Source of the DNA: an uncultured Acidobacteriota bacterium
GTDB taxonomy: Bacteria; Acidobacteriota; Terriglobia; Acidiferrales; UBA7541
Direction: 5' to 3'
Assembly: GCA_963732135.1 (NCBI GenBank)
Contig: CAVSYC010000004.1
Span: 34,484 to 98,483, forward strand
DNA: 64,000 nucleotides
Numbering within the stretch: position 1 is the stretch's first letter; the number at the start of each line of letters is the position of its first letter. The notes under the pieces were generated by a model, which was given only the letters and a program-made list of their open reading frames with translations, was not told the DNA's origin and made no database searches. Below, piece by piece: positions 54,288-57,197 of this stretch. Position numbers and translations under genes: made by a program.

Positions 54288-54551
54288 ATGGCTTATGTGA
54301 TAGCCGAGCCGTGTATCGGCACCAAGGACACTGCCTGCGTGGATGTGTGCCCGGTGGATTGCATCCACCCACGTAAAGACGAACCGGAACATGAGGGCGT
54401 GACGCAGCTGTATATCAATCCGGTCGAGTGCATTGATTGCGGCGCGTGCGTGCCCGTCTGTCCGGTGACAGCGATTTTTGCCCTGGAAGATTTGCCGGAG
54501 AAGTGGCAATCGTTCACGGCGTTGAACTCGGATTGGTACGCAAAGAAGTAA
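54288..54551 (+). CDS. fdxA: Ferredoxin (7Fe FdxA-type)
   Basis: MAYVIAEPCIGTKDTACVDVCPVDCIH and CIDCGACVPVCP. Confidence 0.93.
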   Translation: MAYVIAEPCIGTKDTACVDVCPVDCIHPRKDEPEHEGVTQLYINPVECIDCGACVPVCPVTAIFALEDLPEKWQSFTALNSDWYAKK

Positions 54552-54575
54552 GCTGACGGATCGAATGGAAGAACG

Positions 54576-54605
54576 AAAACGGCACGCGAGAGCGCGCCGT
54601 TTTTT
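54576..54605 (+). terminator. Rho-independent terminator of fdxA (group IIC intron target hairpin)
   Basis: AAAACGGCACGC-GAGA-GCGCGCCGTTTTTT. Confidence 0.85.
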
Positions 54606-54609
54606 ATTG

Positions 54610-55234
54610 GTACGCCGCGCATGCTCGACAGCTTGGAGGTGCAAGTCCTCTTCACAACCTGATAGAGGTGAAGTGATAGCGAAGCGCAAGGGCGTCGCTG
54701 CGAGGCGGGGTCTGAAGGAAGCGTGGAGCAAAAACGCGAGCCAATGTACAAGAACCGAATCTGAGGCGTGAGTGTCGGGCGAGCGGGCCAATGATCGCGA
54801 AGCCCATATCTATCAAGGACGCAAAGCGTAAATTCGGTGGTTGTGCGTGGAAAGCAGTCGAGCTTATCGCGGGAGATCTGTTGCATGTCTCGGATTCGGG
54901 ACTGAGCGTGGAGTAATTCACGCTGATCCTGCAGCAGAAGTCAGCAGCGGGCGTAGTACTCACGCGAGTGAGGAAGGCCCAAACAGTAAGAGTGAATAGT
55001 AGAACGTCGAACTCACGGGTGGCACTGCGCCAGCCAATCAGCTCCGGCTGAGCTTTACAGGTTCAGAAGACGGTGAAGCCGAAACGGAAACCTGCAGAGC
55101 GGCGAAGCCCTTGTGGCGGACGACGACTCGAACCTCCGGCCCGCAAGGGCTCAACTTGCTGAACCGCCGTATGCGGACCCGCCTGTACGGTGGTGTGGGA
55201 GGGGCGAGCAGGTGACTGCTCCCCCTATCCCGAT
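54610..55234 (+). mobile_element. ORF-less class IIC group II intron (625 nt)
   Basis: 5' GTACGCCGCGCATG; DI landmarks GAGGTGCAAGTCCTC, CGCAAGGG...TCTGAAGGAAGCG, GTAAAT, GGAAAG...CTTA..GGGAGATCTG; DIII CAGAAGTCAGCAG...GTAGTAC...GGAAGG...AAC; DV GAACCGCCGTATGCGGACCCGCCTGTACGGTGGT (55161-55194); DVI ending CCCCCTATCCCGAT with a bulged A. DIV is only about 176 nt. Inserted just after a terminator. Confidence 0.92.
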
Positions 55235-55280
55235 GTGCGCCCGGCAGGGGCGGACGGGTGACCGTCCCCCCTATGTCGAT
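55235..55280 (+). mobile_element. 46-nt group II intron remnant (5' end fused to DVI and 3' end)
   Basis: GTGCGCCCGGCA + GGGGCGGACGG-GTGA-CCGTCCCCCCTATGTCGAT. Confidence 0.8.
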
Positions 55281-55400
55281 TTTGGTAAGGTCGCAGGCAT
55301 CGCTGGGTGGACGACCGCCAACCCTCCTTCGGACTTTGACATCTATGGAATTGCCGAGCTGGCTTGGGAGTAGTTAGGGAACGCTCGGGAGGAATAGCAC

Positions 55401-57197
55401 GTGAGAAGAATTATTTCGATGATTGCCGGTGCGGCTTTGTTGACGGGCGCGGGACACCTGGGCGCTCCGGCGCAACAGCAGGCAGCAGCGGGCGCCGCGG
55501 CGAAGCACGGCAAAGCCGCAGGCGTTGTGCACCACGCTCCGGAAGAAGGAGATTGGAGCGGCGCGCTGCAGGTCGGCGAAGCGCAACTGCACCTGGTGCT
55601 GCATTTGAAAAAGAATGCGCAAGGCGAGTGGCAAGCGACGCTGGATAGTTTGAATCAGGCGGTATATGGAATGGAAGCCTCGAACGTGAAGCGCGGCGAA
55701 GATACGCTGGCATTCGAGTTGCCGTCAGTGGGGGCGCACTTTCAAGGCAAAATTTTGCCGGACTTTAAGACCATTCGCGGGTTGTGGGAACAGGGCGGGA
55801 CTGGCCTGCCGCTGTCGTTCGAAAAGCGCGTGCCGGGAGCAGAAAAGTCCGCCGCCAAAACAGTTTCGAAATTGGAAGGCACGTGGCAGGGCGCGATTGA
55901 AACCGGCAATATGCGGATGCGGCTGCAACTGCACGTCGCGCATGATGACAAAGGCGAATTGCTCGCGTCCGTGGATAGTCTGGACCAGGAAATACAGGGG
56001 ATTCCGGCGTCGAAAGTAACCGAGCGGGCAAGCGAAGTACGATTCGAGCTTGCTGCGTTCGGAGCGCAATATCTGGGAACGCTGAGCGCGACAAAAAACG
56101 AGATTGCCGGACACTGGAGGCAGAACGGAAATGATGAAAAGCTGGATTTCCTGCGCTCCGATAAAGTTTTGGAATTGCGACGGCCGCAAACTCCAGCCAA
56201 GCCGTACCCGTACAAGGTAGAAGAAATGTCGTTCCCAGCAGGAGATGGAAAAGCGACGCTTGCAGGGACGCTGACACTTCCGCAGGGAGCGGGGCCATTT
56301 CCAGCGGCAATTTTGATCGGTGGATCAGGCCCGGTAGATCGAGATGAAACGCTAGCCGGGCATAAGCCATTCCTGGTTCTCGCGGATGCGCTGACGAAAA
56401 ATGGAATCGCGATTCTGCGCTACGACAAACGCGGCATCGGACAATCCAAGGGCGACTACACGGAAGCGACGATGCAGGATTTTGCGCAAGACGCGCAAGC
56501 GGCTCTGGCGTACATGAAATCGCGCGGCGAAGTAGACGCCAAGCGATTGGGAATCATTGGCCACAGCGAAGGTGGAATTCTTGCTTCCCAGTTGGCGACG
56601 CGCTCGCAGGACATGCATTGGCTGGTGCTGCTGGCGACGCCGGCCACGACCGGAGAAAACACCTTATTGCGGCAGTCGGAGCTGATCGCTCGTGCGGGCG
56701 GATTGCCCGAGGAACAAATCACGCGCAGCCTGGAGTTTGATCGCAAGGCTTATGCGGCAGTGCGCGCAGAAAAAAACGCGGCTGCACTTGAGAAAAGGTT
56801 GGACGTGTTGGTGCAACAAAGCGGATTGGGCGAAGCGATGCCTCCCGCCGCGCTGCAAGCCCAGATCCGGTTCATGACTTCGCCCTGGTTCCGGCAATTC
56901 CTGGATTACGATCCACAACCGGTGCTGGAAAAGTTGCAGTGCCCGGTATTGGCGATGAGCGGCGACCGCGACCTGCAGGTGGACTCAACCGAAAACGTGC
57001 CGCTCTTGCGCAAGGCGTCCGAGATCAGCGAGAACAAGGATTTCACTGTGGTTGAGGTGGCAGGCGTCAACCATTTATTTCAGACGGCTCCGTCCGGCTC
57101 GCCGGCGCTTTATGGCGCGATCGAAGAAACAATGGCGCCGCAAGTGTTGACCGCCGTGACCAGTTGGGTGACGCGGCACACCTCGTCCTCGCAATGA
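55401..57197 (+). CDS. Exported alpha/beta-fold hydrolase with two N-terminal repeat domains
   Basis: Signal peptide; two G.W.GA...L.L.LH...DS..Q repeats; GSGPVDRDE, RYDKRG, nucleophile GHSEG, GDRDLQV, NHLFQ. GTG start after GGAGG. Confidence 0.88.
   Translation: MRRIISMIAGAALLTGAGHLGAPAQQQAAAGAAAKHGKAAGVVHHAPEEGDWSGALQVGEAQLHLVLHLKKNAQGEWQATLDSLNQAVYGMEASNVKRGEDTLAFELPSVGAHFQGKILPDFKTIRGLWEQGGTGLPLSFEKRVPGAEKSAAKTVSKLEGTWQGAIETGNMRMRLQLHVAHDDKGELLASVDSLDQEIQGIPASKVTERASEVRFELAAFGAQYLGTLSATKNEIAGHWRQNGNDEKLDFLRSDKVLELRRPQTPAKPYPYKVEEMSFPAGDGKATLAGTLTLPQGAGPFPAAILIGGSGPVDRDETLAGHKPFLVLADALTKNGIAILRYDKRGIGQSKGDYTEATMQDFAQDAQAALAYMKSRGEVDAKRLGIIGHSEGGILASQLATRSQDMHWLVLLATPATTGENTLLRQSELIARAGGLPEEQITRSLEFDRKAYAAVRAEKNAAALEKRLDVLVQQSGLGEAMPPAALQAQIRFMTSPWFRQFLDYDPQPVLEKLQCPVLAMSGDRDLQVDSTENVPLLRKASEISENKDFTVVEVAGVNHLFQTAPSGSPALYGAIEETMAPQVLTAVTSWVTRHTSSSQ

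Follow-up and report, generated by a model that had tools for sequence, protein, structure and literature searches.

Group II introns of class IIC are described in PMC4424553, and by Robart et al. (2007) and Mohr et al. (2018), both cited in PMC12584367, as elements that target terminator hairpins, recognise their exons by a short pairing between exon-binding site 1 (EBS1) and intron-binding site 1 (IBS1), and encode a reverse transcriptase (RT) that carries no endonuclease domain. The element treated here lies in a 64-kb stretch of DNA from an uncultured Acidobacteriota bacterium (the window). It is a complete group IIC-type intron ribozyme of 625 nt at 54610-55234 on the + strand, without an open reading frame (ORF), and is inserted behind the terminator of a ferredoxin gene. 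The family to which it belongs, called lineage A below, is most probably a structurally intact, naturally ORF-less and non-autonomous IIC intron that multiplies in soil Acidobacteriota with an RT supplied in trans.

The IIC introns B.h.I1 of Bacillus halodurans, O.i.I1 of Oceanobacillus iheyensis and GsI-IIC of Geobacillus stearothermophilus share with lineage A a small ribozyme with CGC in domain V (DV), insertion directly behind intrinsic terminator hairpins, a very short EBS1-IBS1 pairing and, in the coding relatives, an endonuclease-less RT. These three encode their own RT, whereas lineage A is naturally ORF-less; the ORF-less O.i.I1 of the crystals is an engineered deletion (PMC4748821). 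Lineage A also differs from them by a conserved, structured domain IV (DIV) of 178 nt, by a 5' end GUACG in place of GUGYG and by a CU bulge in DV.

The TeI3 introns of Thermosynechococcus elongatus, which are ORF-less and of IIB/CL type, have been shown experimentally to be mobilised in trans by the proteins of their relatives (Mohr et al., 2010; PMC2882425). They too represent an ORF-less lineage that diverged and proliferated beside RT-encoding relatives, often nested in a helper intron (twintrons). However, TeI3 is found in one thermophilic cyanobacterium, pairs with its target over a long stretch and nests inside the helper ORF, whereas lineage A is of class IIC, targets terminators, nests after the resident's nucleotide 1 and occurs in many Acidobacteriota genomes, its mobilisation in trans being probable by comparison. 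C.te.I1 of Clostridium tetani is an ORF-less IIC intron with four DV/domain VI (DVI) repeats for alternative splicing (PMC4024640, PMC4424553). It resembles the present intron in being a IIC ribozyme that is ORF-less by nature and is followed by an additional DVI-like hairpin, but it is a single copy inside a gene with no related RT in its genome; lineage A is multi-copy, and the extra hairpin in the window is without a DV and represents the stump of another intron.

Tandem and nested arrangements also have precedents. The IIB1 groEL intron EcKTE56 integrated in tandem in the laboratory, where the U of EBS3 pairs with G (PMC12584367). Its second copy shares the resident's 5' exon, lies upstream of the resident and has the resident's G at +1, which is the arrangement of the window (A followed by GTGCGCC...). 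Most A tandems, in contrast, are formed after the resident G1 (GAT/UGUGCC). In Methanosarcina acetivorans, ORF-less and RT-encoding introns home into one another and form nested arrays in intergenic DNA, as PMC4424553 summarises from Dai and Zimmerly (2003). These introns are archaeal, belong to other classes and home into intron ORFs, whereas lineage A stacks from a terminator and by a G/U rule. A review regards ORF-less bacterial introns as rare and short-lived (PMC4424553), and the one well-studied ORF-less lineage that proliferates is of IIB/CL type and from a single cyanobacterium (PMC2882425). The present intron is group IIC by structure and behaviour and non-autonomous by lifestyle, like TeI3; both kinds are already known.

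The intron ribozyme and its fold

The intron and its domains are as follows.

54610-55234, + strand: ORF-less group IIC-type intron (lineage A), 625 nt; Rfam matches and full-length sisters
54610-54872, + strand: domain I (DI), beginning with the 5' end GUACG (54610-54614); RNAalifold consensus of 14 copies and RF02001
54789-54792, + strand: EBS1 (CAAU), in the terminal loop 54787-54794 with closing helix 54783-54786/54795-54798
54873-54942, + strand: domain II (DII); consensus structure with compensatory changes
54949-54980, + strand: domain III (DIII); RF01998 match and consensus structure
54984-55161, + strand: DIV, a structured ORF-less arm of 178 nt conserved across lineage A; consensus helices 21-28
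55163-55194, + strand: DV, with the CGC triad at 55165-55167 and a CU bulge, unvarying in close sisters; RF00029 alignment
55196-55232, + strand: DVI, with the bulged A at 55227 and four compensatory pairs; RF00029 alignment and consensus structure

Three Rfam models match the intron, and each match exceeds the gathering score. RF02001 (domains I-IV type 3) covers 54694-54863 (124.8 bits, E 3e-25), RF01998 covers 54902-54979 (47.1 bits), and RF00029 (DV-DVI) reaches 42.1 bits over 55162-55234. A first-pass annotation had proposed an ORF-less IIC intron with these boundaries and had named group II models of the Infernal type as a check; identity and boundaries hold, and the intron shows no similarity to an RT. 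Elsewhere in the 64-kb window the Rfam models give no further group II intron match, and the intron sequence matches only itself there (the 100% self-match).

The six-domain group II fold with its conserved DV is present. The intron ends ...CCCCCUAUCCCGAU at 55234 (...CCCGAT), and the bulged A55227 stands 7 nt ahead of U55234 in a terminus ...GAU, which agrees with the 7-8 nt and the 3' AY of group II introns. Without the 178-nt DIV the ribozyme measures about 447 nt, and its CGC in DV is aligned to the AGC of RF00029. A compact ribozyme (about 400-450 nt without DIV) and CGC replacing AGC in DV are hallmarks of class IIC. Two further traits of the class are found here as well: insertion immediately behind the stem-loop of an intrinsic terminator (in other cases of attC), and exon recognition that depends mainly on 3-4 bp between EBS1 and IBS1. 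Introns of the class have no EBS2-IBS2 pairing and recognise the 3' exon by EBS3-IBS3.

A consensus fold of 192 pairs was obtained with RNAalifold from 14 related copies, and standard pairs occupy 98% of the alignment cells. Both sides have changed in 44 of the 192 pairs, against 10.6 +/- 2.5 in shuffles (0 of 500 reach 44) and just 3-8 pairs in a slid-partner control. DIV contributes 11 pairs with such changes, and an example from DII is the window pair C54907-G54922, which is G-C in sisters. This covariation argues that the intron fold is kept by selection. Is the window copy itself intact? Against a consensus (at least 80%) of 29 other distinct full-length copies it departs at five columns. 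Four of them fall within helices, where standard pairing is retained each time, and the remaining one is an unpaired position of DIV. Judged by its sequence, the window copy is structurally intact.

The 5' end GUACG retains G1, U2 and G5 of GUGYG and differs at positions 3-4. The first-pass annotation had listed this end and the CU bulge of DV as slight variants beside an intact CGC triad and DVI bulged A, and all four are present. The variants, however, are lineage-wide: GUACG is common to 34 independent sister sites, and because mobile sister copies have both GUACG and the CU bulge, these would be features of the whole of lineage A and not decay. The GUACG form appears compatible with mobility. 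A guess that 54723-54724 are the epsilon' partner of intron bases 3-4 was dropped, as alignment column 124 is part of an ordinary helix.

Domain IV and the absence of a protein gene

The largest ORF overlapping the intron has at most 103 aa, and a Pfam search of the intron frames found no RVT_1 or GIIM. With the RTs of the related B introns (described below) as tblastn queries, no RT was found in the whole 64-kb window; one spurious match came from nucleotide conservation in DII-DIII. One DIV frame, NQLRLSF...GEA, had been likened in the first-pass annotation to the N-terminus of an intron protein. The frame literally exists, but it has no Pfam match, no tblastn match to ten related (B) RTs and no similarity to any intron protein. 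DIV as the remnant of a deleted RT gene was rejected on the same absence of Pfam and tblastn matches, the comparison with B giving just chance matches of 8-11 nt. Positions 54988-55006 faintly resemble the Shine-Dalgarno and start region of B (by way of an intermediate, L108, in alignment A2), over a length too short to count.

A version of lineage A that carries an ORF was not found among the retrieved loci. Other ORF-less IIC introns of about 620-730 nt, 68-80% identical to lineage A, are present in L011, L022/L089, L035, L066, L069, L093, L108, L113 and L115, with hosts that include Latescibacterota, Bryobacterales and Nitrospiraceae MAGs (metagenome-assembled genomes); in L108, DIV still opens with a hairpin and a Shine-Dalgarno stretch that resemble those of B. 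From such sequences the ORF seems to have been lost several times within the clade.

Sister copies

A 35-nt pattern from the 5' region of the intron, scanned against one genome per species, found at least 110 loci, mostly in Acidobacteriota MAGs. Among the matches listed, nearly all begin GTGTGCCGAGCATG directly behind a G+C hairpin and a T-run. Ten of the listed loci are full-length ORF-less copies of about 625 nt, 90-96% identical to the window and all with the same DIV, and nine of these ten start with GUACG or UUACG. Two further scans with the EBS1 region, in its two forms, added 12 and 67 loci for the form of the window and gave 20 for the other form. The first scan had found several A copies by way of an adjoining B copy, for which the later A-specific scans corrected. 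After removal of duplicates there are 37 sites with the window loop form and 18 with the other.

About 30 distinct full-length copies (619-626 nt) are 88-97% identical to the window. Acidobacteriota MAGs and soil metagenomes together contain at least 50 distinct insertion sites, which follow different terminators, and a single long-read MAG, MFD04434.bin.1.18, holds 12 copies. The hairpin and T-run context is found at nearly all of the roughly 100 family 5' ends. The first-pass annotation had named sister copies as a check, and at least 50 near-identical ORF-less copies behind other terminators now answer it.

In the soil run X1, taken as DNA by guess only, contigs identical to 54700-54879, 54958-55074 and 55045-55234 have a depth of 34-40, and flank-identical contigs one of 3-4. 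As the intron is in about 10-fold excess over its flanks there, and its 3' end is joined to a B-type 5' part, the source population would hold several copies of the exact window sequence.

The first 390 nt or so of the intron are also 70-77% identical to unannotated stretches on hundreds of plasmids from E. coli, Klebsiella, Burkholderia, Rhizobium and Microvirga. These stretches, for which the database entries show no features, are presumably IIC introns.

The insertion site and the EBS1-IBS1 rule

The surroundings of the intron comprise the following features.

54288-54551, + strand: ferredoxin gene, 87 aa; ORF list, and Pfam families of the Fer4 type matched by an identical protein of syntenic contigs
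54576-54605, + strand: intrinsic-terminator hairpin and T-run; inverted repeat
54606-54609, + strand: IBS1 (AUUG), whose core UUG (54607-54609) pairs with EBS1 CAA; sequence and EBS1/exon covariation
55235-55280, + strand: remnant of an older intron, its 5' end GTGCGCCCGGCA joined through a common GCAGG(G) to a complete DVI hairpin ending ...GTCGAT
55281-55400, + strand: 3' exon TTTGGTAAGGTCGC..., collinear with the post-terminator sequence of the empty-site allele L006

The ferredoxin terminator is the insertion site. Its G+C-rich hairpin of 12 bp starts 25 nt past the ferredoxin stop codon and has arms at 54576-54587 and 54592-54603 with one mismatch (92% complementary); the 5' boundary of the intron, ATTG/GTACG at 54609/54610, follows the hairpin and T-run. 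The 3' exon is the spacer ahead of a gene for a 598-aa hydrolase (55401-57197). The hydrolase is 71-84% identical to homologues in Acidobacteriota MAGs, and there is no close species representative for the window organism. Exact-protein look-ups of two genes neighbouring the intron returned no record, and an exact 36-nt DIV pattern had 0 matches in the contigs of species-representative genomes, which do not include the window species.

What determines the point of insertion? At 54787-54794, the terminal loop, the window has GCCAAUGA and one subfamily has GCCCAUGA, and the last three exon bases vary with the loop.

EBS1 CAA (window type), 37 sites: UUG at 32, UGG at 0
EBS1 CCA, 18 sites: UGG at 14, UUG at 1

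The association of loop and exon is strong (Fisher's exact p = 6e-9): the C-to-A change at 54790 relative to the CCA subfamily is matched by a G-to-U change at exon position -2. Rarer loops that fit the rule are ATA with UAU (2 of 2 sites) and AAC with GUU (1 of 1). The loops UAC and AGA do not form three standard Watson-Crick pairs with the exon, and three tandem copies behind another intron's 3' end also break the pairing rule. In the window, CAA at 54789-54791 pairs with UUG at 54607-54609, and a fourth pair, A54606-U54792, is the window's own. The first-pass annotation had placed EBS1 at CAAT (54789-54792), complementary to ATTG (54606-54609), and its three inner pairs are confirmed by covariation over some 55 independent sites of insertion. 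At most sister sites where the 3' flank was read, U follows the intron.

RT-encoding relatives, tandems and mobility in trans

Where might an RT come from? IIC introns of about 1.9 kb that encode an RT, here called B, are present in MAGs with sister A copies; they are 79% identical to A in DI-DIII, and both types match RF02001. The B ORF is intact and contains RVT_1 (E 1e-42) as well as GIIM (E 7e-23); an endonuclease domain is lacking. Proteins encoded by class C introns comprise RT and X and have no endonuclease. A and an RT-encoding intron occur together in MFD04434.bin.1.18 and MFD04463.bin.2.22, and the B introns in these MAGs stand both solo and directly 3' of A. The suggestion of the first-pass annotation that the ribozyme is non-autonomous and mobilised in trans finds support in the sister copies and in the RT donors of their genomes, the step in trans being a probable one.

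Another intron lies directly 3' of A in 10 of the 18 CCA copies and in about one in four of those CAA copies whose 3' flank could be read. At the tandem junction, ...CCCGAU/UGUGCC, the downstream intron is without its first G, and the upstream one is thereby nested after nucleotide 1. We read this to mean that an incoming intron requires a G at -1 followed by a U at +1, and that the G1 and U2 of a resident behind an exon ending in UG or UU provide them. In a single MAG the B copies downstream of A differ at 0-1 positions in 1886 nt and the A copies at 3-17 in 625; copying of A and B as one composite unit is excluded by these near-identical B and diverged A copies.

Head-to-tail arrays of two or three IIC introns of any types were seen, and the downstream member is without its first G in all of them. 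They include A followed by A in L206 (GAT/TACGCC), A followed by an 87% identical ORF-less copy (L099:1995-3244), B followed by A without G1 (L014:846-3361) and, in L029 and L062, A followed by B and a third intron.

The tandem junction also decides how head-to-tail joints in sequencing runs are to be seen. Such joints, in which an intron 3' end meets an intron 5' region without its first G, could be taken for circles of intron RNA and for direct proof of excision: a joint of 55234 to 54614 with TGT between is present at full intron depth in X1 and X2 and also in the RNA run X25, and loss of a base at a 2'-5' junction is plausible for a reverse transcriptase. The same junction, however, is genomic in long-read MAGs, where A is followed by an RT-encoding intron (...CCCGAT/TGTGCCGAGC at at least 10 loci), and an X1 contig is contiguous on the tandem locus L176:577-848. 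That circles explain the joints is extremely improbable; as the main source they were rejected, and the joint represents a DNA tandem of A and then B without G1.

Comparison shows that the RNA of lineage A recognises a terminator hairpin together with three exon bases that pair with EBS1 (CAA/UUG in the window), and that it inserts immediately after the paired bases, preferably ahead of U. Insertion would proceed by reverse splicing and reverse transcription, with an RT/maturase provided in trans by the B introns of the same genomes (RVT_1 and GIIM, no endonuclease).

An older intron at the same terminator

A second DVI-like hairpin, which the first-pass annotation did not mention, is found at 55243-55280. 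It forms a direct repeat of DVI, 76% identical to it, with compensatory stem changes and the same bulged A. How did it originate? Contigs encoding an identical ferredoxin (L001-L009) were retrieved and aligned. Allele L006 is empty (...GCCGTTTTTTAT^TTTGGCCAAGG), and L001/L007 and L002 are likewise empty. L004 consists of a stump only, the first 19 nt of an intron and its DVI. L003 is partly deleted, with the 5' 103 nt, fragments of RVT_1 and GIIM, and DV-DVI; L008 is likewise partly deleted with RT fragments, and L005 and L009 are otherwise deleted intron alleles. It is the second hairpin, not the first, that is collinear with DVI of the decayed introns (L003, L004, L008) and with the downstream TTTGG..., and it is missing from the empty allele L006. 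By this collinearity, 55235-55280 is the stump of an older RT-type intron. On the comparison of alleles, the 625-nt intron reached this terminator later, as the second to arrive.

A working alternative 3' splice site, on the model of C.te.I1, might also be imagined for the second hairpin, given its perfect DVI fold, its bulged A and its ...CGAU end, retained through compensatory changes, and given that C.te.I1, itself an ORF-less IIC intron, uses such repeats (PMC4424553, PMC4024640). Yet each site in C.te.I1 has its own DV/DVI, and there is no second DV here; an intron 5' end, GTGCGCCCGGCA, stands ahead of the hairpin; the hairpin's collinear counterparts are the DVI of RT-containing or decayed introns (L003, L004, L008) that are without A; and none of the other A copies examined has one. 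A role in splicing is very improbable, and the hairpin is better understood as part of the older intron's stump.

The A copy of the window precedes the stump's first base (GAT/GTGCGCC), which makes the pair a tandem and not a twintron. Nesting after the stump's G would have brought UGG, a mismatch, to CAA, while the place before it offers a perfect UUG; the position therefore agrees with a choice of site by EBS1. In the proposed order of events, an older intron behind the ferredoxin terminator would have decayed to a 46-nt stump (5' end and DVI), and an A copy would then have invaded the same terminator upstream of it, where the IBS1 match is perfect and the G at +1 unusual. Read-through transcripts of the ferredoxin gene would carry the intron, which might excise itself.

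The ferredoxin terminator (54552-55400 compared with L001-L009) is a hot spot, with empty sites and at least five differently decayed alleles in related strains. The exact place of insertion varies over a few bases between alleles (it follows ...TTAT, ...TATGTG or ...ATTTGG), which points to several independent invasions.

Intron RNA and the weight of the contrary evidence

RNA of the A type with a contiguous short DIV was assembled in all eight of the metatranscriptomes examined. In X26, A contigs 96-99% identical have about 520-560x coverage against 15-70x over the B ORF, and X51 contains an A-type contig of 487 nt. These contigs are evidence of transcription or accumulation and not of excision, which cannot be deduced because the intron is multi-copy across many organisms. 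Metatranscriptome contigs run into Illumina adapter inside DV/DVI (at window position 55203 in X26 and 55191 in X51). Many cDNA inserts end in DV/DVI, where there could be a structural stop or a stop ahead of the branch point.

Several points weigh against a mobile lineage served in trans. There is no RT gene and no second intron copy within the 64-kb window; the RT donor named as a check in the first-pass annotation exists as intact RT-encoding IIC introns in genomes with sister copies, but not in the window. DIV of A has no significant similarity to DIV or the ORF of B, and the route by which a B protein would bind A is not evident. MAGs and metagenome assemblies, in which repeats may be mis-joined, are the source of many of the sister loci. 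No joint of 54609-55235, 54609-55281 or 55227-54610 (ligated exon or lariat), and no circle, was found in the eight RNA runs, which consist of contigs from mixed communities in which rare forms would be missed and the window strain is barely present. The +1 base in the window, finally, is G (the stump's first base), an exception among CAA sites, and it may weaken the second splicing step at this site.

Could the window copy then be a stranded one, which came by retrohoming, is inert in a genome without a helper RT and appears intact merely because it is recent? The lack of an RT in the 64-kb window and of a spliced or branched joint in the RNA runs would be expected of it; the G at +1, where most sister sites have U, points the same way, and the decayed introns at this site in related strains suggest that decay is the usual fate there. 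On the other hand, standard pairing survives at the four helix positions where the copy deviates from the family consensus (a fifth deviation is at an unpaired position), and the exact sequence stands about 10-fold above its flanks in X1, with its 3' end joined there to a B-type 5' part. A stranded copy is unlikely on this balance, and a lineage that still multiplies with a helper RT is preferred.

Significance of the lineage

What stands out is the scale: this ORF-less IIC lineage is diverged and widespread, offers a natural series of retargeted forms (EBS1 CAA, CCA, ATA and AAC with matching exons), is frequently stacked on helpers and is represented by abundant A RNA in soil metatranscriptomes. 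It might become a system for the study of IIC proteins acting in trans, of targeting by three pairs and a hairpin, and of gene loss with continued spread, a question that bears on models of the origin of spliceosomal introns. For annotation, the lineage explains a common repeat of about 625 nt behind terminators in Acidobacteriota assemblies, which RT-based intron finders would miss.

A more far-reaching proposal can be offered tentatively, and is rather doubtful. Lineage A might be a long-lived hyperparasite of RT-encoding IIC introns, comparable to a SINE (short interspersed nuclear element), with its CCA and CAA forms tuned to a terminator plus the helper's G1/U2, and with A RNA persisting as a stable ribonucleoprotein. 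The target would then be an exon ...UG or ...UU plus helper G1, followed by helper U2. If true, this would be the first widespread non-autonomous IIC family, contrary to the view of ORF-less introns as rare and short-lived.

Other elements within IIC introns

An A copy in L185 was considered as an ORF-bearing parent of lineage A, as it has a 1375-nt insert at the DIII/DIV border. This was rejected: the insert (L185:1000-2376) is an IS110-family insertion sequence, with a 351-aa transposase (DEDD_Tnp_IS110 and Transposase_20) on the opposite strand, and the A copy that hosts it is otherwise 95-98% identical.

A group II intron of a different class (RF02005, 188 bits), with the 5' end GTGCGCCGGTAGAAATCGG... 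and a 498-aa RVT_1 ORF, lies at L009:2962-4805. Introns of the RF02005 type are inserted right after the 3' strand of DV (equivalent to window position 55193) in several IIC copies. Further cases are L152:182-775 on the - strand, L160 and L177, and the same junction appears as a loose end in the RNA runs X25 and X27. They seem to be a second type of intron, with the conserved DV of IIC introns as its homing site.

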